A stretch of 64,000 nt of DNA from a virus: IMG/VR virus record IMGVR_UViG_3300045115_000211, positions 49,195-113,194 of that record, one strand, 5' to 3'. The stretch's first letter is position 1. Each line of letters starts with the position of its first letter. Of the stretch, positions 22,803-43,453 are shown in pieces. The notes beneath the pieces are model-generated. The model worked only from the letters and a program-made list of their open reading frames with translations. It was not told where the DNA came from and made no database searches. Made by a program: the position numbers and the translations under genes.

Positions 22803-23578
22803 GCATGGGCGTCAGGCTCAAGCAATGACGTTGGCCAGAAAGACGCCGTGGGCCAAGGGCAGGAGGCTGGCTTGGGTCAGCCACGGCGACCAGGCTCACC
22901 GTTGCTGGCACGTGCCGTACGCCGTGCCGCCTAGGACGGCGGTCTGCGGCTACCACATACATCGACAACGTGGAGACGGTCCCCGAGATGGTCACGCAGG
23001 ATGTGGCGTCGGGGCTTGCGAAGTGGGTCAGGTGGATTGGCGACAGGCATGCGGCTCCAAGGGTCATGGTCGGGAAGGCCCACAGCAGGGGCATACTGGA
23101 CGGCCAAGGATTTCGCGACGCCTCCATCACCCTGCGCGAGCTGATGGGGGACATGCCGGAGGGCTCACGAGACTATGCCGACGTCTGCTCCAGCGGAGCA
23201 TGGGAGCACGCCCCATGACGTCCCGGAAGATCGCTCCTGCGACAACCACAGGAAGGCCCACACGCCGCGAGAGGCGGCGTCCATCGTGGACGTCGCCAGG
23301 AGGACGGGTGGCGAGGCGTTCTTCGACGCCCTGTCCTGCCTCGCCGCGGACGGCCTGACCAAGTCCCAGTTCGATCTCATCCGCAGGGCCGCCGCGTCCG
23401 CCGTCGTCAGGAACTCGGCTTGCCCCTTCTGCAAGGGCGAATCCACTGTGCTCGCCGCAAGGGCGAGCGAGGCGTCATGCCGCTGGTGCCTGAGGGCCTG
23501 ATCTTCGCCGTTGACTCCGCCGCCGTCCTGTGCCATCATCTTGGCATCGAGACAACCCATCGCGAGAGGAGAAACCAT

Positions 23579-24757
23579 ATGCCGTTCGTCAAGGGATCCG
23601 AGCACCGCTTCGCCATGAGGGGAGCCGACAGGACGCCCACGTTCCCCGACCGCTGGTACAACACGAAGGACGGCATCGCGAGGTCGGCGAAGACGCTCGC
23701 CGGCCTGAACGCCCTATTCAGCGCCAGGCGCGACGCGGGATATTGCCGCAACGAGCGCCTCGCCGAGTTCGTGGTCCTCGGCATGTGGTACCTCGACACC
23801 TGCGGCAACGCCATGAAGGCGATGTCCGACGCCCGGGACTTCAACGTGACGCCCAGGAAGGCGTTCACAGACGCCGGCATGGCCATCCCCGACGCCATCG
23901 GGATGGACGAGATGCACGCCGCCCTCAAGCCCCACTATGCCGAGGACAAGTACCCGCACATGTCGTTCGCGGCGGGGAGCGACCTTCCACAGGCCTATTT
24001 CCTGTGCGCTGGGTGCGGCCGCCCGTGGACCATCGCCGACTGCGACGACGCCGTGTGCGAGCGGGAGGAGGAGGTGGCGAAGGCCGAAGGCTGCGCCGGG
24101 ATGACGCTCGGGGACTTCCGCAGGTCGTTCGATGGGCGCAACGACGCCTTGTTCGTGTTCCAGCCCGAACTCGCCGTCCGCAACGACCGCTTCATCGACC
24201 TGTCGCCGAAGTACCCCGGCACGGACAAGGATTGGGAGAAGGGCGTCCCCAAGAACGAGCACGGATGGAAGTCGGAGGGGGAACTCTCTGCCTCGATGGA
24301 CGCGGGGGAAATCCACGCCCCGGCGTCATCCCAGCCGAACGTCGACACCTACGTCCTGCAGCCCGGCGACGAGGTCTTGGTCAACGTGTTCCGCTACAGC
24401 CACAGGGCATGCCTCCAGGCCAAGGTCGACCGGGCCGCCATGGCGGCGTTCGCCAAGGCGTTCGAGGACGCCGGCCTGCGGACGGGGATCGGGCTGGCGG
24501 AGGTCGAGAACGAGTACGGCTCCCGCTCGTACCGCGGGCCGTGGTACGTCGCCATGACCGAGATCGGCGAGGTCCGCGTCGGATGGCGCAAGCGGGTCAT
24601 CGAGGTCGTCTTCCCCGACTGGGTCCCCGTCGGCACCCTGTTCGCCAAGGAGGACGTCACCAAGTCGGCACACCTGATCCACGCCTGGGGCTACGACAAG
24701 CTGGCCGAGTACCTCAAGGCGGCGAAGAAAGCGGCGAAGGAAGCGAGGAAGACATGA
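23579..24757 (+). CDS. conserved phage hypothetical protein
   Basis: GPWY...GWRKRVI...EDVTK...IHAWGY; promoter 23511; AGGAG RBS. Confidence 0.75.
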   Translation: MPFVKGSEHRFAMRGADRTPTFPDRWYNTKDGIARSAKTLAGLNALFSARRDAGYCRNERLAEFVVLGMWYLDTCGNAMKAMSDARDFNVTPRKAFTDAGMAIPDAIGMDEMHAALKPHYAEDKYPHMSFAAGSDLPQAYFLCAGCGRPWTIADCDDAVCEREEEVAKAEGCAGMTLGDFRRSFDGRNDALFVFQPELAVRNDRFIDLSPKYPGTDKDWEKGVPKNEHGWKSEGELSASMDAGEIHAPASSQPNVDTYVLQPGDEVLVNVFRYSHRACLQAKVDRAAMAAFAKAFEDAGLRTGIGLAEVENEYGSRSYRGPWYVAMTEIGEVRVGWRKRVIEVVFPDWVPVGTLFAKEDVTKSAHLIHAWGYDKLAEYLKAAKKAAKEARKT

Positions 24758-25143
24758 GGAAGCAGGAGAAGTTCGTCCCATCCCTCAACGACCGCGGCTA
24801 CAGGTTCCGCTGCCATGCCAAGGGCGCGCCTGGGGCGTCCGTCGTGTTCGACGTCAGGACCCACCCCCAGTGCTTCGGAACGGGCGACATCCCCGCCCGC
24901 TCGACCTGCCTCATCGATGGCAAGGGGCGGGAGGTCTTCGAGCACGACGTGCTTGAGCTCAGGTCGACAGTCACCGACATGCACAAGCGCAACGCGACGG
25001 GCGAGTACGGCCCGATGCTGTTCCTCGTGGCGTGGCGCCACGGCGACCCCGTCCTGATCGACCAGGACGCTGTAGAATGGCTTATGGCAGGTAGGGTCGC
25101 TCGCCACGGGCGAGCGTGGATTGAAACGATGGAAGGGGATTGA
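24754..25143 (+). CDS. YopX-like protein whose 3' end runs through a CRISPR repeat
   Basis: FRC, STCLIDGKGREVFEHDVL, VAW; ends VARHGRAWIETMEGD. Confidence 0.6.
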   Translation: MRKQEKFVPSLNDRGYRFRCHAKGAPGASVVFDVRTHPQCFGTGDIPARSTCLIDGKGREVFEHDVLELRSTVTDMHKRNATGEYGPMLFLVAWRHGDPVLIDQDAVEWLMAGRVARHGRAWIETMEGD

Positions 25144-25184
25144 CAAGGCGCGACTTCGCCCCGCAAACGGGGCGTATATTGGAC
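25096..25184 (+). CRISPR. mini-array: full repeat (25096-25127), 27-nt spacer, degenerate repeat (25155-25184); candidate Cas-regulating RNA
   Basis: repeat identical to first array repeat; second unit TTCGCCCCGCAAACGGGGCGTATATTGGAC keeps a 7-bp stem and a tail resembling the repeat's; TAGAAT -10 at 25073. Confidence 0.8.
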
Positions 25185-25241
25185 GGGTCATGGACTGTGG
25201 CTACCATGGGATTTCTCAATGCCACTTCTTGGGTCGTTGCG

Positions 25242-25298
25242 AAAAAAAAAAGATTCTATGGAAAGGGGTTGACTCCCGACCCATAGTTGTGAGATACT
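25242..25298 (+). promoter_or_regulatory. cas operon promoter with A-tract and TTC-PAM-flanked mini-array target
   Basis: A-tract, TTC 25254-25256, TTGACT 25269-25274, GATACT 25293-25298 (18-bp spacer). Confidence 0.75.
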
Positions 25299-25362
25299 GT
25301 TGCCAGTTGGACCAAGGTGGTTCAACGTGTCGTAGAAACGAAGGAAGAACAGGAGAGTGAGT

Positions 25363-26265
25363 ATGTCGCAGAAGTCGCAGAAGGTCGAGTTCGAGGTTAA
25401 TGGAGTTCGCTATGTGGTGTTCGTCGATGCGCGGAGGTCCAACCCTAACGGGCAGGGACAGGGCGAGAACCAGCCCAGGCACTTCGACGACGGCACCGTG
25501 TGGGCCAGCGCAGAAAGCATCAAGCGCGGCATCAGGGACACGTGGATCGCAGAACTGGATGGCGTCCCCGGCTGCGACGTGTTCGTCTACCCCAGGCGCC
25601 CCATCGTGGAGGCCATCGCTGCGGCCCGTCCCGGACGCCAGCGGTTCGACGACGCCGGCGAGATGGCTGCGGCGGTACGCCAGAAGTACATCGACGCACG
25701 GGCGTTCGGTGTCGTCCTGGCAGACGGCAAGGCCGAGAGCGGCGACGATGACGATGGCGGCTCCAAGAAGAAGTCAAAGCAGCTTTCGATCGGGCTCAGG
25801 GGGCCAGTCGTCGTCACCGACGCCGACTCCGTCGAGCCCACGCCGATCGAGGAAATGGACATCTCTCGCTGCTGTCCCCACAAGGACGACAACGACAAGG
25901 ACCACAACCAGGGGAAGAAGTGGTTCGTCCGCTACGGCCGCCTGCGCTTCTGCGTCTATGTCGAGCCGCACATGGCTCGCCAGAGCGGGTTCAGCAAGGA
26001 AGACCTCGGGCGCCTGGAGGATGCCCTGAAGGACGTCTACAAGCACAGGCGCACCGCCAGCCGCCCCGACATGAGGACCGTGGCCGTCTACCGGCTGACC
26101 CCTCGCGAAGGCATGAAGCCCTCGTCGAGGGCGATGGACGAGATCACCGACCGCATCCAGTCCAAGCGGGTCGTCCCCGGAGACGTCCCGACCGAGGGGT
26201 GCTACTCCCTGCCCAACGCCGAGGAGTTCTGCACCGAGCAGGTTCTCGTCGAAAGGATCGACTGA
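25363..26265 (+). CDS. cas7: type I-C Cas7 (Csd2)
   Basis: SNPNG...N.PR, SIKRGIRD, YIDARAFG, LRGPV, GFSKEDL; AGGAG RBS. Confidence 0.92.
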   Translation: MSQKSQKVEFEVNGVRYVVFVDARRSNPNGQGQGENQPRHFDDGTVWASAESIKRGIRDTWIAELDGVPGCDVFVYPRRPIVEAIAAARPGRQRFDDAGEMAAAVRQKYIDARAFGVVLADGKAESGDDDDGGSKKKSKQLSIGLRGPVVVTDADSVEPTPIEEMDISRCCPHKDDNDKDHNQGKKWFVRYGRLRFCVYVEPHMARQSGFSKEDLGRLEDALKDVYKHRRTASRPDMRTVAVYRLTPREGMKPSSRAMDEITDRIQSKRVVPGDVPTEGCYSLPNAEEFCTEQVLVERID

Positions 26266-26326: not shown

Positions 26327-27007
26327 ATGGCTACCAGCAGCAACGTCAGGGTCCTGGTCGGGATTCGCGGGCGCAGGGCCTGCTTCTCCAACCCGTCCGC
26401 CGGCAAGATCAACAAGTTCTCGTACCCGTTCATCACGGTGTCGGCGGCGCGAGGAGTGGTGGCGTCCGTGTTCCATCGCCCGCAGATGGACTGGGTGCCG
26501 ACCCGCATTGCGGTCATGAGGGCCGGACGGTCCGCCAACGTCGCCAGCAACGAAATCGACTTCGATCTGTCGTCGACCGATCCCGTCTTCGCCGACGAGG
26601 CAAGGATGCAGGTCAGCGCGCGGATTCTCGTTGACGTCGACTACATCATCGAGGCCGAGCCGGTCGTGCTCTGCCCCGGAACCACCGATGACCCGAACAC
26701 GCCGGAGAAGTATGCCGCACAGTTCAACCGCATCTTGGTGGACGGCAAGGGGCTGTACTACTCCACGCCGTGCCTTGGCCCGCGCCAGTACGTCGGGCGG
26801 CTCTATCCCGTCGAGCGGTTCCCGGAGCGGGGGTGCGCGATCCCCGACCTGGAGGTCCGATCCATGTTGGTCGGCATCTCCAAGGGCGCCGACAGGCGCG
26901 ACGGCGGACGGGACTATCCCGTTTTCGCCGACATCCGCCTCGTAGATGGGATCTTCTCCGCCCCGAGGTTCGTGTCGTCCATGTTCAACCCTGGAGAATC
27001 GGCATGA
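26327..27007 (+). CDS. cas5: type I-C Cas5 (Cas5d)
   Basis: G.RACFSNP, SYPFITVSAARG, DVDYIIEA, PCLGPR. Confidence 0.92.
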   Translation: MATSSNVRVLVGIRGRRACFSNPSAGKINKFSYPFITVSAARGVVASVFHRPQMDWVPTRIAVMRAGRSANVASNEIDFDLSSTDPVFADEARMQVSARILVDVDYIIEAEPVVLCPGTTDDPNTPEKYAAQFNRILVDGKGLYYSTPCLGPRQYVGRLYPVERFPERGCAIPDLEVRSMLVGISKGADRRDGGRDYPVFADIRLVDGIFSAPRFVSSMFNPGESA

Positions 27008-28836
27008 TTTCGATGAGCCCGGTCCAGGAGGTCATCGCCCTGTATGACGCGCTTTCGGCGGCTGGCCAGATGCCGCCCCTTTGTTGGGGGCAGGCGACGA
27101 TCGGAATGACGGTGAAGATCGACGATCATGGGGGCGTCAGGACCGCCATGCCGCTCGGCAATGACTGCTCGATGGTCGTCCCCATCCCGTTCGTGTCCAG
27201 GTCCTCTGGCCTGGCGCCGACATTCGGGACGGACAACGCCAAGTACCTCGTGGGCGAGGCATGGGAGGCGTGGCGCGAACACCACCTCGCCTTCTCCGAC
27301 AAGGCCGCGTTCCCTCCCGCATTCGTCCACTTCCTCAAGAACGGGAAGACCCCGTTCGTCCCCACCAAGGAACCCAAGATCATCAGGCTCTCGGGTTCGG
27401 ACTTGTCGGGGACGTTCGTCATCGAGTTGCCTGACGGCACCTACCTGCACGAACACGCCAGCGTCAAGTCGTTCTGGCAGCCGGACAACATCATCGATTG
27501 GGAGAACCACGGCAGGCTGTCCCAGGGTCGAGACCCGATCCGCACCGTCGAGGGGTATTCATCGGTCGACGGCAAGTGGGGCAAGCTCGTCGAGTTCCAC
27601 GCCGCGATCGGGATGGTCGTACCCGAGGCCCAAGGCTCCGCCAAGCTGGGGGCGGTAAACACCAGTGGCGGGGGGTACTCTTCGTACGGAATGGACGGCG
27701 GCTTCACTTCCCCCATGACCATCGACCAGACGTTCAAGTTGGCATCGACGATCAGGTTCCTTGGCAACAGGGACAAGGCCGCAGGAGACCGAACGTCGTG
27801 CAGGCCGATCGTCGCGCGGGGAAGGAAGATCAGCATCATGTCCGACAGGATGAAGGCCGTGAAGGCCCTCGTCCTGGGCTGGGGCGAGCCGACGGCGGTG
27901 TCGTGGATGAACGAGGAGTTCGCCAAGGACGACGACTCCATGAGGAAGGCCATCGACGTCATCGATGGGATCATGTGCGGCAAGGCCGAGGTTCCTGGCG
28001 TGACGCAGGACGACCGGGTGTGCTTCATGGCGATGTCCGCCCCGACCAAGGGTCGGATAGCCATTGACGAGTTCTGGTCTGGGGACGCGCCGACCGTCGC
28101 CGTCAAGATGGCCAAGTGGCACGCCGCATCGATGACCACGGATCCCGACATGACCCGGCAGGTGCAGACGAGGTACCAGTTCGTGAAAAGCCTCGGGATT
28201 GGCCACGACAAGGCGCTGAACGAGAGCGAGGCGCACGTCGTCAGGGGACTGTTCCAGTCCGCCATCGAAGGCGAGCAGATGCCGGTCGACATCGCATACC
28301 ATGTCAGGAGGGCATGCCAGAGGGTTCTGGCCACAGGGGACGCATTTGTCCACGGGCGTTCGAGCCTGTACAGCCCACTGCGCACGCTCCGGGGCTGCAT
28401 GGCTAGGGCGGGAGTGGGGTTCAATGAGGGAGGATACGAGATGATCGATAAGACCGCGGCATACCAGTTGGGCGTCCTGCTGATAGCGTTCGACGACGCC
28501 GTGCGGAGCGACGAGTGGAGGCGGACGAGGAAGTGGAGCCGCAGCAGCGTTAACGGCCTGCACTCGAACACGAAGAGCATCCTTCCGACGTGCCTGGCGA
28601 AGCCGTCGGCGGCGGTGGCCACAATGCGGCATAAGCATATGCAATACTACGCGCGGTATTGGCCGCAGGACGCCGTCAACATCAACGACGAGTGCTTCTC
28701 CGCTCTGCCCGCAACCCCTCTTTCGCAGCAGCAGCGGGACGAGTTCTTCGCCGGCACCGCACACGGCCTCGAACTGCGCTCCAGGAAGATCGCCGCCATC
28801 AAGGCGGCAAAGACCCAGAGGGAAGCGCGTGAATAG
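27004..28836 (+). CDS. cas8c: type I-C large subunit Cas8c (Csd1)
   Basis: LYD, VP...RSSGLAP.F..DNAKYLVG, SSYG, GRIAI, AYQLG.L; ATGA overlap with cas5. Confidence 0.88.
   Translation: MISMSPVQEVIALYDALSAAGQMPPLCWGQATIGMTVKIDDHGGVRTAMPLGNDCSMVVPIPFVSRSSGLAPTFGTDNAKYLVGEAWEAWREHHLAFSDKAAFPPAFVHFLKNGKTPFVPTKEPKIIRLSGSDLSGTFVIELPDGTYLHEHASVKSFWQPDNIIDWENHGRLSQGRDPIRTVEGYSSVDGKWGKLVEFHAAIGMVVPEAQGSAKLGAVNTSGGGYSSYGMDGGFTSPMTIDQTFKLASTIRFLGNRDKAAGDRTSCRPIVARGRKISIMSDRMKAVKALVLGWGEPTAVSWMNEEFAKDDDSMRKAIDVIDGIMCGKAEVPGVTQDDRVCFMAMSAPTKGRIAIDEFWSGDAPTVAVKMAKWHAASMTTDPDMTRQVQTRYQFVKSLGIGHDKALNESEAHVVRGLFQSAIEGEQMPVDIAYHVRRACQRVLATGDAFVHGRSSLYSPLRTLRGCMARAGVGFNEGGYEMIDKTAAYQLGVLLIAFDDAVRSDEWRRTRKWSRSSVNGLHSNTKSILPTCLAKPSAAVATMRHKHMQYYARYWPQDAVNINDECFSALPATPLSQQQRDEFFAGTAHGLELRSRKIAAIKAAKTQREARE
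28441..28836 (+). CDS. cas11: internally translated small subunit Cas11 (131 aa)
   Basis: in-frame ATG with GGAGG (28429-28433) 7 nt upstream, just before AYQLG. Confidence 0.75.
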   Translation: MIDKTAAYQLGVLLIAFDDAVRSDEWRRTRKWSRSSVNGLHSNTKSILPTCLAKPSAAVATMRHKHMQYYARYWPQDAVNINDECFSALPATPLSQQQRDEFFAGTAHGLELRSRKIAAIKAAKTQREARE

Positions 28837-31234
28837 GCGCGACAAGACCCGATACGTCGGGATGGTCGAGGGCCTCGGCCTCAACCCCTATTCCCGCCCC
28901 GCGCATCTGGAAAACGGCTTGCTGGCCCCGCGGGAGCGGTGGGAGGTGATGCCGGAACACCTGGGCGCCGTCGCGGCCTTGGCCAAAGCGTTCGGAGACA
29001 AGATCGGTCTCGGAGACATATGCGAGGTGGCGGGAGGCGGGCACGACACGGGAAAGTTTGACCTCCAGATGCTTGGCAGGTTCCTTGGCCGCGTCGAGTC
29101 GTTCGACCATCCCGCCCTCGGCGCCGCCCTGTTGGACGCCGCCACGGAAGGCATACTGACGCAGCCGATCCTAGGGCACCACCGCTACATCCCCGACGAG
29201 ACGGAGGAGGACGCCTCGGAATGCGTGTCTGCAAGGCTGGAGAAGGCAGCCACCCATCGGCATTCCATCGAACTGATACCCTTTCTGGATCGCGCCGCCG
29301 AGGCAGCCAGGACGGCGAAGTCCGTCCTGAAGGCGGCGTTGCGGTCGGAATTCCCGAACGCCGCCGACCAGGAGCGCTTCTTCCCGATGTTCTTCTTCGC
29401 GATGCAGAAGTTCATCAACTCGGCCCTCGTCGATGCGGACTGCCTGTCAGCCGAGAGGTTCCACAAGGGTCACGGACGCCGGAACAGGTTCCCCCCGATG
29501 TCCGTCCTCCTGGATCGACTCGTGAGGTTCCAGGCCCGGGTTGCCGCCGCAGGAGCGGCGACGGCGGAGCCTTGGCTTGTTGAAATGCGCAACGACGTGT
29601 GGGCGTCCGCGATCTCCGCCGCCCGGCTGGAAGCCTCGTTGTACTTCCTGACCGCCCCGACGGGAAGCGCCAAGACGCTGGCCTACGTCGTGCTTGCGAT
29701 GATGAAGGCCGTCAGCTTGGGCCTCGACAGGGTGATCATCGTGCTGCCCTATTGCGCGGTCACGTCCCAGGTCAGCGACGTCCTTCGGGCCGCCATCGGC
29801 AGGGGCAATGTGATAGAGCACCACACGGGCTACGACCCCAAGGAACGAGTCAAGTCTTTCCGCTCGTACCGCCAGATACTGGCGAACACCCCAAGGAACA
29901 CATCGGCGTTGCACAAGGAGTCCTCCAGCCTGCAGGAGGAGATGAGGCAGACTTTCGAGAACTGGGACGCCCCCGTGATCGTCACCACGCGCGAGCAGTT
30001 CGACGAGTCCTTCTTCTGCCGGCTCCCAGGGCGCAGCCGCAAGGTCCACAACATGGCCAGGAGCGCCATCGTGTTCGACGAGATCCAGGCCGGCAACAGG
30101 GACCTGACCATACCGTTCGTCGGGATGCTGCACGTCCTGCGGTCGCTGTACCGCTCGGTCGTCATCTGCTCCACGGCCACCCAGCCGTCCTATCACAAGT
30201 CTGACGACAGGCAGTGGGGACTGGAAGGAGGGGTCGATGTCGTCGCCAGGCATCGCGAGTATTTCGCCATCGCTTCTCGACGCACCAGCATGACCAGGAT
30301 AGGCAGGAAGTCATCCCGAGAAGTGGCCGAGATGGTCGCCGAGCACCGCCAGGTCATGTGCGTCCTGAACACGCGCCTCAACGCCGTTCTCGTCTCGACA
30401 CAACTGGAGAGGATGGGGGTTCCACACATCCTGCTGTACTCCTTGCGCTGCAAGCGCGAGCGCAACCGGGTGGTTCGCCTGGTGGCGAGGTGCCTGGCAG
30501 CAGGCATCCCCATCAGGCTGGTCACCACCCAGGCGGTCGAGGCGGGGACTGACTTCGACTTCCCGGTCGGGTATTCCGAGGACGCCCCGTTGGACTCCCT
30601 CGACCAGCGCCGCGGTCGAGTCAACCGGCACGGAAGGCGTGGGACGAGCCAGTTCTACGTGTTCACCCTGTGTGACGGCAACAGCAACCCCTCGTACGTA
30701 GCGGGCTTGGCCTCCACCGAGACCGTCCTCTCATCGACGGGGGACTTCAACGTCGTCGACGTCGGGACGATGGACGCCTACTACGCCAGGATGTTGAGGA
30801 GCGAGAAGCCGCTCGACAAGCACAGGATCGTCCCCGACAGGCACATGTCGATGTCCGGGCGCGGCGGTCTTTTCAGGTCGAAGTCGAAGTATCCTCCGAC
30901 CGCCGGGGCCAATGTCTACAGGACGAGGTTCGCCTCGTACGACGAGTTCAAGTACATCGGCGGAAAGTGCAGCGTCGTGATCCCTACCAACGCCGAGTGC
31001 AGGCGGGCGATAGCCGACATGGATGCCGCCATGGCATCGGGAAAGAAGCCCGCTCGAAAGACGTTGGCCACCTTGAGCGGATACGTCGTCAGCATCTATG
31101 AGAACGAACTGGATGATCTCGCCCGTAAGACCATCTTGGAGAACCACAATGGGTTCTTCGTCCTGCGCGATGTGGCTGGCTTCTATAATGCCAAGAGGGG
31201 TCTGCTGATCGCTGGGATGGATGGAGTGGATTGA
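28829..31234 (+). CDS. cas3: Cas3 HD nuclease-helicase
   Basis: EHL, HDTGK, GHH, LVDAD; APTGSAKT, ENWDAP, DEIQ, TATQP, TQAVEAG, QRRGRVNR. Confidence 0.95.
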   Translation: MNRRDKTRYVGMVEGLGLNPYSRPAHLENGLLAPRERWEVMPEHLGAVAALAKAFGDKIGLGDICEVAGGGHDTGKFDLQMLGRFLGRVESFDHPALGAALLDAATEGILTQPILGHHRYIPDETEEDASECVSARLEKAATHRHSIELIPFLDRAAEAARTAKSVLKAALRSEFPNAADQERFFPMFFFAMQKFINSALVDADCLSAERFHKGHGRRNRFPPMSVLLDRLVRFQARVAAAGAATAEPWLVEMRNDVWASAISAARLEASLYFLTAPTGSAKTLAYVVLAMMKAVSLGLDRVIIVLPYCAVTSQVSDVLRAAIGRGNVIEHHTGYDPKERVKSFRSYRQILANTPRNTSALHKESSSLQEEMRQTFENWDAPVIVTTREQFDESFFCRLPGRSRKVHNMARSAIVFDEIQAGNRDLTIPFVGMLHVLRSLYRSVVICSTATQPSYHKSDDRQWGLEGGVDVVARHREYFAIASRRTSMTRIGRKSSREVAEMVAEHRQVMCVLNTRLNAVLVSTQLERMGVPHILLYSLRCKRERNRVVRLVARCLAAGIPIRLVTTQAVEAGTDFDFPVGYSEDAPLDSLDQRRGRVNRHGRRGTSQFYVFTLCDGNSNPSYVAGLASTETVLSSTGDFNVVDVGTMDAYYARMLRSEKPLDKHRIVPDRHMSMSGRGGLFRSKSKYPPTAGANVYRTRFASYDEFKYIGGKCSVVIPTNAECRRAIADMDAAMASGKKPARKTLATLSGYVVSIYENELDDLARKTILENHNGFFVLRDVAGFYNAKRGLLIAGMDGVD

Positions 31235-31271
31235 AATTGGACGAGCCGTCTGCCGGATGAGGACAGAGCAA

Positions 31272-32678
31272 GTCGCTCGCCACGGGCGAGCGTGGATTGA
31301 AACGACTCCACCCGTCGGGATCAATGGCGGACAGAGGTCGCTCGCCACAAGCGAGCGTGGATTGAAACCCCGACTCGTTCCTGCTGCCCGAGTTCGACGA
31401 GTCGCTCGTCACAGGCGAGCGTGGATTGAAACTGTTCGGGCTTTTGCGACCAAGCCTGATAGCGCTTGTCGCTCGCCACAGGCGAGCGTGGATTGAAACA
31501 GGTTGTTGCCGAGCGCCGCGAGCCGCAACACGAGTCGCTCGCCACAAGCGAGCGTGGATTGAAACGACTCTCGCCGCCGGCATCAATGAAGGTCATGGTC
31601 GCTCGCCACAGGCGAGCGTGGATTGAAATGCGCGCTCGCCGTACGCCTGCCCAAGCTCAGGGGCGTCGCTCGCCACATGCGAGCGTGGATTGAAATGGGT
31701 CTTCGGGCAGGCACAGACCCTGTAGGTATGTCGCTCGCCACAGGCGAGCGTGGATTGAAATAGCGCCTGCTTGGCGGCGATGTAGGCGTCCAGTTGTCGC
31801 TCGCCACAGGCGAGCGTGGATTGAAATGAGAGCGAACGCCGCGGACATCGCGGCACGACGGGTCGCTCGCCACAGGCGAGCGTGGATTGAAATATCTGGG
31901 TTCGGTCCCTGTCGCCGATGACGCGACGTCGCTCGCCACAGGCGAGCGTGGATTGAAACCTCCCGTACCCGCCGGGCATGCTCAGGTGCTACGGTCGCTC
32001 GCCACAGGCGAGCGTGGATTGAAACGACCGTGAGGGCCTGCCCCAATGTATGTGGCGGTCGCTCGCCACAGGCGAGCGTGGATTGAAACGCGTACGTGCA
32101 ACTCGTACGAAAGCTGGCCAACGGTCGCTCGCCACAGGCGAGCGTGGATTGAAACCTTCACTTGCCCCCGTCTCGCCGCTCGGCGTGTCGCTCGCCACAG
32201 GCGAGCGTGGATTGAAACGCCCTGCATGCCGTCAGGGCCGAGGCGGTGAAGATCGCTCGCCACAGGCGGGCGTGGATTGAAACGTGACGAACGGGGAGAC
32301 AACGGTCGACCCTCTGCGTCGCTCGCCACAGGCGAGCGTGGATTGAAACGCCTCCAAAGCGCCGCGCCACGGCCGCCATGGAGTCGCTCGCCACAGGCGG
32401 GCGTGGATTGAAATATGATGTTCGAACTGGACTGCCCGATCCCGTCTGGTCGCTCGCTACAAGCGAGCGTGGATTGAAACATGTCGAGTCCCTCCTGATA
32501 CGCGCCCACCATGGAGTCGCTCGCCACTGGCGAGCGTGGCATTGAAACAAGGTCCGCAGGATATCGATGTGGCCCGACGAGGTCGCTCGCCACAGGCGAG
32601 CGTGGTATTGAAACCGCAAGCCCCGCTGATCGACATCACCTGCCCGGTCGCTCGCCACAGGCGAGCGTGGATTGAAAC
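31272..32678 (+). CRISPR. type I-C CRISPR array, 22 repeats / 21 spacers (31-35 nt), plus a repeat remnant at 31226-31237
   Basis: consensus GTCGCTCGCCACAGGCGAGCGTGGATTGAAA[C/T], 32 bp, palindromic. Confidence 0.98.
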
Positions 32679-42403: not shown

Positions 42404-43453
42404 ATGGGTGCCATGAAGTCAACGAAGCACCGGCATGTCGCCGGGCGGGCGGCCGAAAGGCTGGACGCCGCCCTGCGGGTGGACGCCGACGCCGCCAGGC
42501 GCGAGCACGCCCTCGTGGCGATGGCGACGCTGCTCGTCTCCGGGGGCTGCCGCGCCTGCTCGTCCCCGCGGGAGGTGAACCGGCTGATGCCCGACGGGGA
42601 GTGGTTCCGCACGCGGCACGAGCTGAGGCGCGTCACGGGCGGGCGGAAGGCGGCGCTGCGGAGGCTCGCCGCCGGCGGGATCGTGCCTGCCGGCCGTTTC
42701 GGGGCATGGTCGCCCGACTTCTGGGCTGGCTTGCGGCTTTCCGGCGCGATCCATCCCGACAGCCATCCGAGGGAGTGGGTCGTGAGGTTCCCGCGCAGGC
42801 ACGAGGCGTTGCTGGAGGACATGCTGGGCGAGGCGCCGTTCATGCGCCGCTGGTCGGACTCCAAGCGTGGGGTGACGCTCTGGTCGCTGTGGGCGGCGGA
42901 GATGGGGGCCGACGATCCGGCGGGCGCCGGCGTGCTGGCGGGGCTGATGGCTGGGGCGCGCAGGCTGGACGACGGACAGGGGATGGGGTGGGCCGTGGTG
43001 ACGGACTCCTTGGGCGCCAGGCGGCTTCTGGGGGATCTGATGGTGCCTTTCGTTGTGGAGCGGCGGAGGCGGGGGCTGGCGTTGAGCCCGTTCTGGGGGG
43101 CGCTGGTGGCGCACATGATGCCTGCGGCGAGCGCGGAGAGGTACAGGCTGTGGCTTCGGCCGGCGTGCTGTCCCTTGCTGCCGTGGGCGTTCCTGGCGCA
43201 CGCCTGGGGGAAGGGGTTCGCCGGGATGAGGCGGCACGTGCCGTGGGCGTCGGCGCGTCCGTGGGCGATCAGGGGCAGGTTCCCCACGGAGGGCAGGCGG
43301 CTCCGGAGGGCTGGCCTGGACAGGCTGGGGTTCCTGGGCGTGTCGCCCGTGTTGAGGGCCGCCTGGCTGGAGGGGGCGCGTCGGAAGGGGCTTGACTTCG
43401 AAGGGGGGATGTGTCATGATGGTCTCGTGAAAGGGGAGGAAGGGACGCCATGA
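42404..43453 (+). CDS. hypothetical Arg/Trp-rich protein next to the skew switch
   Basis: long ORF; start 42404 or 42413. Confidence 0.65.
   Translation: MGAMKSTKHRHVAGRAAERLDAALRVDADAARREHALVAMATLLVSGGCRACSSPREVNRLMPDGEWFRTRHELRRVTGGRKAALRRLAAGGIVPAGRFGAWSPDFWAGLRLSGAIHPDSHPREWVVRFPRRHEALLEDMLGEAPFMRRWSDSKRGVTLWSLWAAEMGADDPAGAGVLAGLMAGARRLDDGQGMGWAVVTDSLGARRLLGDLMVPFVVERRRRGLALSPFWGALVAHMMPAASAERYRLWLRPACCPLLPWAFLAHAWGKGFAGMRRHVPWASARPWAIRGRFPTEGRRLRRAGLDRLGFLGVSPVLRAAWLEGARRKGLDFEGGMCHDGLVKGEEGTP

Follow-up and report, generated by a model that had tools for sequence, protein, structure and literature searches.

A solitary mini-CRISPR unit as a candidate autorepressor of a type I-C CRISPR-Cas system on a virus record

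A rearranged type I-C system on a virus record

The window, by which we mean the whole 64,000-nt stretch of DNA analysed here, comprises bases 49195-113194 of a 113,194-bp IMG/VR virus record, for which CheckV estimates a completeness of 62%; its GC content is 64%. Matches to PHROG families include RtcB ligase, ribonucleotide reductase, several DNA methyltransferases and NAD-dependent ligase; tail-protein and endolysin matches are present but weak, and no capsid, portal or terminase genes were seen among the scanned ORFs. A preliminary description, made from the letters of the window, had spoken of a phage genome, and the origin of the DNA in an IMG/VR virus record agrees with this. A large phage is a fitting identity for the record, a label that derives mainly from the source's own classification.

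Four cas genes follow one another on the plus strand. The first, cas7 (Csd2-like; 25363-26265, with the start taken from database protein P0001), matches Pfam family PF05107 (E 6e-36) and has TIGR02589 as its best NCBIfam match. It is followed by cas5c (26327-27007; PF09704, TIGR01876), whose product aligns end to end with the type I-C Cas5 of PDB entry 8g9t, and by cas8c (Csd1-like; ORF 26770-28836; PF09709, E 3e-27, and TIGR01863). Since the PF09709 match begins at residue 91 of this ORF, the true cas8c start probably lies near 27000-27040. The last gene, cas3 (28829-31234), encodes an HD nuclease and a helicase, as indicated by TIGR01596, TIGR01587 and Pfam helicase domains, with the TIGR01596 cas3_HD match (47.9 bits) above the cut-off. 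The NCBIfam matches of Cas7, Cas5c, Cas8c and the Cas3 helicase core all stay below the curated cut-offs, so these proteins are divergent; the best Pfam and NCBIfam families of all cas proteins are nevertheless those of type I-C.

The main CRISPR array (31272-32678, plus strand) begins 37 nt after the cas3 stop and holds 22 repeats and 21 spacers of 31-35 nt. Searches of a phage collection with the array and with the cas region turned up no protospacers; the sole match was repeat similarity in one unannotated 5-kb record. We came across no cas1, cas2, cas4 or cas6 in the operon, nor any adaptation genes between 25363 and 32678 or in the neighbouring scanned ORFs. Canonical type I-C operons are arranged as cas3-cas5-cas8c-cas7-cas4-cas1-cas2, whereas the window has cas7-cas5-cas8c-cas3 followed by the array. 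Judged by this non-canonical gene order and the missing adaptation genes, the system is a rearranged, interference-only variant of type I-C.

A degenerate two-repeat unit upstream of cas7

Outside the main array, and in the same orientation, the plus strand carries a perfect CRISPR repeat at 25096-25127, 235 nt upstream of the cas7 start. Over its entire length (32/32) it agrees with the repeat that opens the main array at 31272, and it gives a weak plus-strand match to the Rfam family CRISPR-DR9. The repeat is composed of 2 nt, a 7-bp stem with a 5-nt loop and an 11-nt handle, the same layout as described for type I-C (PMC8524198); by analogy with that study, Cas5c cleavage would be expected after 25116. 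Directly downstream lies a spacer-like guide of 27 nt (25128-25154), which is shorter than every one of the 21 main-array spacers. We compared it with the array spacer at 32284, but their similarity is not significant (p 0.066) and we rejected a relationship between the two.

The guide is followed by a decayed second repeat (25155-25184), which a global alignment places at ~69% identity to the perfect one. It retains an exact 7-bp stem at the same offset, with a 4-nt loop and a 10-nt tail, even though three of the stem pairs are altered on both sides. As the stem has survived through three double changes, its pattern points to selection on structure. Both hairpins appear in the minimum-energy fold; the stability of the 25080-25200 fold does not exceed that of shuffled sequences (z -0.8), a statistic that says little for two short hairpins. 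The decayed repeat was also considered as an intrinsic terminator and rejected, as it lacks a T run and was not called as one. Perfect repeat, 27-nt spacer and divergent hairpin repeat had all been listed in the preliminary description, and each of them is found where it was placed.

The guide partially matches a TTC-flanked site over the putative cas7 promoter

A partial protospacer for the guide lies 129 nt downstream of it, at 25257-25273 on the plus strand. It directly follows a TTC at 25254-25256, on the strand that is identical to the guide, and TTC is the PAM in studied type I-C systems (PMC5602111, PMC8406640), by which we identify it as the putative PAM here. Guide positions 1-17 match the site at 14 of 17 positions, with mismatches at 1, 8 and 12, while only one of the ten positions from 18 to 27 is matched. 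Type I Cascade flips out every sixth guide base, which concerns positions 6 and 12 of this target. Watson-Crick pairs are formed at positions 2-5, 7, 9-11 and 13-17; position 8 is an rG:dT wobble and position 1 an rG:dA mismatch of two purines. With position 12 flipped out and position 8 a wobble, position 1 remains as the sole hard mismatch, at the PAM-proximal end, and 13 of 15 pairing positions are usable. The preliminary description had named exactly this position as the weak point of the match.

The target overlaps a promoter-like site ahead of cas7 (Pcas7; 25269-25298, plus strand). Its hexamers at 25269-25274 and 25293-25298 are separated by 18 nt, with a TG before the second hexamer, and a run of ten A residues (25243-25252) precedes the site. 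The record contains ~35 plus-strand promoters that resemble each other, and Pcas7 is a member of this family; cas7 follows it after ~58 nt. The matched stretch covers its first (-35) hexamer. Thus, the earlier reading of a TTC-flanked 14/17 match over the -35 box of the cas7 promoter is borne out by the pairing table, and the consensus scan called the promoter-like site independently. The same scan yielded no further promoter-like site between Pcas7 and 32763, a position beyond the array. Given this result and the 37-nt gap between cas3 and the array, the cas genes and the pre-crRNA are probably both transcribed from Pcas7.

We then asked how often such a match would arise by chance. Among composition-matched shuffles of the guide, only 1 in 200,000 trials reached at least 14/17 at a TTC-flanked site within 25155-25362 on either strand; when the PAM rule was dropped, the fraction rose to 9.5e-4. 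Random genomic 27-mers attained the level of the match in 3 of 200,000 cases, samples from the region itself not counted. Scanning the whole 113-kb record for TTN-flanked sites with at least 8/10 matches in the seed or at least 12/15 overall brings up the target at 25257 alone. A second 14/17 match appears at 43380 if the PAM rule is lifted; it is also a promoter, but has no usable PAM. Guide and target share a -35-like pentamer common to the ~35 promoters of the record, so their similarity is somewhat inflated. Still, the combination of PAM, register and location is very unlikely to be due to chance.

The unit forms the 3' end of an upstream gene pair

The mini-array is embedded in the end of a two-gene unit, orfA-orfB, which is preceded by a promoter-like site at 23511-23539 on the plus strand (9/12 in the consensus scan, TG before the second hexamer). 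This site belongs to the same family of ~35 promoters as Pcas7. The start of orfB (24754-25143, plus strand, 129 codons) overlaps the orfA stop; its last 16 codons cross the perfect repeat, and its stop codon falls inside the spacer. Third-position GC in orfB is ~0.9 until ~25050 and drops to 0.57 in the 90-nt window from 25054. No Pfam or PHROG family was found for orfB.

The preliminary description had assigned a -10 box, TAGAAT at 25073, to the mini-array. The hexamer is present (25073-25078, plus strand), but it lacks a -35 partner and is absent from the calls of the promoter scan, so that a promoter of the mini-array's own is weak at best. As the proposed -10 stands without a -35, transcription from such a promoter is no more likely than read-through from upstream with subsequent cleavage by Cas5c, and the site at 23511 is the likely read-through source. 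We also considered that the guide itself might double as a promoter, and rejected this idea because no -10 is suitably spaced from it.

Two related loci: an identical region and a parallel case

The Cas7 clade is very small: in an exhaustive HMMER search, only four proteins reached E <1e-38, three of which are known only from Logan assemblies. Scans of viral contigs with Cas7, a five-protein alignment, P0007, P0008 and P0009 revealed no relatives, the exact repeat found no match in the contig scan, two genome-collection scans were without relatives, and a word-index protein search recovered only its own query. In one metagenome contig (L009), the whole intergenic region is identical to that of the window, whereas two differences fall in the upstream ORF.

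The second informative relative is a 4,957-bp metagenome contig (L010) with a Cas7 that is 40% identical and with the gene order cas7-cas5-cas8c, as in the window. Here, an array of 16 repeats is located upstream of cas7 in the same orientation. Two of its spacers (46-66 and 684-704) are only 21 nt long, compared with 29-36 nt for the others. With 21 and 27 nt against ~33 nt, the short guides differ from normal ones by whole 6-nt Cas7 steps. In type I-E, Cascade can assemble on guides shortened by whole Cas7 steps. Both 21-nt spacers match sites in a duplicated cas7 leader at 11 of 12 positions counted from position 1, with only position 6 off (shuffle probability ~1e-4). The matched sites, at 1097 and 1375, sit just downstream of -10-like hexamers that were read by eye, and are flanked by TTC and TTT, respectively; TTT is active as a PAM in the Legionella I-C system (PMC5602111). 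Outside the array, the other L010 spacers find no site with a clean seed match. By this pattern of matches, L010 is a predicted independent case of self-directed short-guide logic in the same clade.

The resemblance between the L010 short spacer and the guide of the window is weak (p 0.027). We regard homology of the two as suggestive at most and do not claim covariation. Of the spacer/target comparison in related genomes that had been proposed as a check, L009 contributes an identical region and L010 an analogous pair of short guide and target with a clean seed.

A model of Cascade autorepression

Taken together, the unit at 25096-25184 is, in our assessment, probably a degenerate mini-CRISPR that yields a CreR-type RNA for autorepression by Cascade, a reading that we hold with moderate confidence. 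The CreA/CreR logic had already been put forward in the preliminary description; it is supported by the cognate repeat, the short spacer, the decayed repeat, a match confined to the PAM-proximal part, the TTC, the position over the -35 and the parallel in L010.

We infer the steps of the circuit, from transcription and processing to binding, repression and derepression, as follows. Transcription of the mini-array would probably come from the promoter-like site at 23511, with the unit at the tail of the orfA-orfB message; the weak -10-only start near 25073 may contribute as well. The phage Cas5c would cleave the repeat hairpin at its 3' base, resulting in an RNA made of the 11-nt handle, the 27-nt guide and the decayed-repeat hairpin. 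Around this RNA, Cas7, Cas5c and Cas8c would form a Cascade that probably has one Cas7 subunit less than a complex carrying a 33-nt guide. It would read the TTC at 25254-25256 and pair with the template strand over 25257-25273. In this position, the complex would cover the -35 of the sole promoter for cas7-cas5-cas8c-cas3 and the array. Pairing would end after position 17, so that the R-loop stays incomplete and does not license Cas3, leading to repression without self-cleavage. A truncated match fits a regulator, as a full self-match would be harmful given the HD nuclease domain of Cas3. Finally, a shortage of Cascade, its occupation by other crRNAs or its inhibition by an anti-CRISPR would open the promoter; this derepression upon titration is carried over from the CreR papers.

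The main doubt concerns the imperfect seed. Repression may be weak, or even lost, owing to the mismatch at position 1 and the wobble at position 8. Reporter assays on the haloarchaeal I-B system showed that promoter activity responds to single seed changes in the CreA target site (10.1101/2023.03.10.532045). On the other hand, Legionella I-C interference still stood at ~91% when position 1 was mismatched, with transformation going from only ~1% to ~9% (PMC5602111).

These seed defects also lend weight to the alternative that the unit is a relic, that is, a decaying ex-regulatory spacer or the last unit of a former array upstream of cas7, no longer exerting useful repression. The degenerate second repeat and the lack of a clear promoter for the mini-array point the same way, and the L010 array upstream of cas7 makes a shrunken remnant at this place plausible. 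Against decay, however, the first repeat has stayed perfect, double changes have maintained the stem of the second one, PAM and target are intact with 13/15 pairing positions usable, and the region is identical in L009 while the neighbouring ORF varies. In addition, the position-1 mismatch is largely tolerated in the studied I-C system (PMC5602111). We consider a relic unlikely, if well worth weighing. A coincidence, in which an ordinary leftover spacer happens to resemble a G-rich promoter region, could appeal to the two 14/17 sites that remain genome-wide without the PAM rule, about the number expected. It is very improbable in our view, as PAM, guide-position-1 register and location together amount to 5e-6 to 1.5e-5, or ~1e-3 if choices made freely are allowed for a hundredfold, and as L010 offers an independent parallel.

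The guide could instead be aimed elsewhere, at the promoter of a competing phage or, in the manner of Cracr RNAs, at a host cas promoter, with the self-match as a by-product of shared promoter architecture. Its -35-like pentamer and the 14/17 match to a further promoter of the record at 43380 are in line with this, phage mini-arrays are frequently directed at related viruses (PMC11656645), and phage crRNA-like mimics of host CreR have been described (10.1101/2024.10.29.618823). Yet 43380 is without a usable PAM, which leaves the cas7 promoter as the only PAM-flanked site in the record; the spacer is shortened, unlike interference spacers; the logic in L010 is self-directed, too; and limited searches (phage collection, contig repeat scan) gave no external match. 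We therefore give an outside target a small chance. Similarly doubtful, and slightly more so, is a role in which the spacer guides nothing: the perfect repeat would either soak up Cas5c or Cascade in the manner of a Racr, or offer Cas5c a cleavage site by which the orfA-orfB message receives its 3' end. Solitary phage repeat units are known inhibitors (PMC10651486), and the repeat does fall within the final stretch of orfB codons, where the transcription unit ends. Such a role would leave unexplained the PAM-flanked 14/17 match, the preserved second hairpin and the L010 parallel, and a pure decoy makes little sense against cognate Cas proteins that the phage itself encodes.

If Cascade autorepression is indeed the function, the circuit would govern a CRISPR-Cas system carried for the phage's own use and set the level of phage Cascade in infection, which a rival anti-CRISPR or a flood of crRNAs would raise. 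Guides that fall short of the normal length by one (27 nt) or two (21 nt) Cas7 steps suggest a simple rule that distinguishes regulatory from immune spacers; in L010, shortened guides would occur even within a regular array. More speculatively, the device could be an ancient one in a small, rearranged I-C clade, with the phage autorepressor cut from the 3' end of an upstream message and with the guides of the clade shortened by Cas7 steps and aimed at PAM-flanked sites ahead of cas7. We put this wider picture forward tentatively, as possible rather than probable. With one promoter, one guide and four cas genes, the locus represents a compact test bed for how far seed mismatches can go, and could show whether phage-borne CRISPR systems sense the anti-CRISPRs of rival phages.

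Comparison with known systems

CreR RNAs from degenerate mini-CRISPRs have been validated in bacterial and archaeal systems of types I-B, I-E and V-A, where repression is relieved by Cas titration, and CreA-like elements for I-C, I-D, I-F and I-U were noted via manual search (10.1101/2023.03.10.532045). We found no experimental test of an I-C case in the literature searched; for subtype I-C, self-repression is represented by predicted examples only. The unit of the window resembles these elements in its cognate first repeat, its decayed second repeat and its PAM-proximal partial match to the promoter of the effector cas genes, and the expected outcome, autorepression without cleavage that is relieved on Cas titration, would be the same. 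It differs in being located on a virus record, where it would control the phage's own interference-only system, in the position-1 mismatch and position-8 wobble of its seed, and in occupying the 3' end of an upstream ORF instead of a free intergenic gap.

Shmakov et al. described regulatory mini-arrays upstream of cas8 (I-E, I-F1), cas6 (I-B) and cas10d (I-D) (10.1101/2023.03.03.530964). A word search of that survey found no mention of I-C. In common with the window, these mini-arrays have two repeats, the conserved one of which lies on the seed side, and they match a cas promoter region further downstream partially, over at least 10 nt, next to a canonical PAM (a putative one in the window). 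Mismatches at every sixth position are tolerated. The phage mini-arrays of the survey, however, copy host ones and silence host cas genes, not a phage-borne operon. The same contrast applies to Cracr RNAs, phage crRNA-like mimics of host CreR/CreA that include candidates against I-C loci (10.1101/2024.10.29.618823): they, too, are phage-encoded, repeat-derived and directed with a short guide against a cas promoter, but hijack host Cas proteins against host immunity, whereas repeat, cas genes and promoter in the window are all the phage's own.

Other relatives are more distant. In CreTA, a partially matching crRNA-like RNA likewise guides Cascade to a promoter, but CreA represses the promoter of the creT toxin, while the promoter targeted in the window leads straight into cas7; on reading 25299-25362, no toxin or separate small gene was apparent. 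Racr RNAs (PMC10651486) share the single perfect repeat on a phage genome outside an array, but are decoys without a guide-target relation that mimic host repeats and act on host Cas proteins. The unit of the window, by contrast, has the repeat of the phage's own array, a PAM-flanked target, a second hairpin and cognate cas genes in cis. The I-C variants of huge phages (PMC7162821) also combine a phage-encoded I-C-like effector and Cas5 processing with a lack of cas1, cas2 and cas4; in them a helicase replaces Cas3, whereas the Cas3 of the window has an HD domain, and a regulatory mini-array has not been reported for these variants. A word search of a 2024 review of CRISPR in mobile elements gave no mention of autoregulation or of a regulatory role, and we found no description of crRNA-like self-repression of a phage's own CRISPR system in the literature searched. 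Overall, CreR-type switches are known from bacteria, and what appears to be distinctive of the unit described here is its phage-borne, self-directed context.

The cas7 promoter and its surroundings

The promoter-like site upstream of cas7 (window 25269-25298, plus strand), which is overlapped by the TTC-flanked partial match of the mini-array guide, belongs to a strongly conserved promoter family in which the extended -35 block is nearly invariant and the -10 carries a TG extension. About 35 plus-strand sites of this family lie in the window (for example, at 23511, 32711, 32763, 34394 and 40081, all plus strand), with further copies in the remainder of the record; nearly every copy has plus-strand orientation and lies upstream of a gene. 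Within the family, the site ahead of cas7 is comparatively weak, having an 18-nt spacing and a -10 that deviates from the consensus. Also upstream of cas7, an ORF of 129 codons and unknown function (24754-25143) derives its terminal 16 codons from CRISPR repeat and spacer, and its natural end seems to have been replaced or extended by the repeat.

In a divergent relative, the 4,957-bp metagenome contig L010 (Cas7 40% identical), a tandem duplication (contig positions 1030-1210 and 1310-1420) spans the cas7 promoter, the leader and the opening codons of the gene. The first of the two copies leads into a truncated cas7-like ORF, and each has kept a PAM-flanked site for the 21-nt spacers of the contig's array. 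That array carries an identical 21-nt spacer twice (46-66 and 684-704), and another spacer (487-520) has its last 13 nt in common with these two, which suggests segmental duplication or recombination within the array.

Architecture of the main array

The main array (31272-32678, plus strand) is nearly leaderless: only 37 nt separate the cas3 stop from the first repeat. The final cas3 codons contain a 12-nt copy of the 3' handle of the repeat (31226-31237), located exactly one spacer length (34 nt) upstream of the first full repeat. This copy has the appearance of a leader-side repeat that has decayed and is overlapped by the end of cas3. Inside the array, spacers 31304-31336 and 31566-31597 are clearly related, their local score of 14 being the highest of all spacer pairs, as expected if both originated from the same gene in two target variants. 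Near the distal end, two repeats (32516-32548 and 32582-32614) were missed by the mismatch search because each carries a one-base insertion in the handle and is thus 33 nt long.

Possible processing by Cas5c

End-to-end alignment of Cas5c (26327-27007) with the type I-C Cas5 of PDB entry 8g9t places a Lys-Tyr pair opposite Lys-Phe, positions that we take to be those of the Lys-His pair in the catalytic triad of Cas5c. For this triad, an invariant lysine and a replaceable histidine are described (PMC8524198), which makes processing activity of the window's Cas5c plausible.
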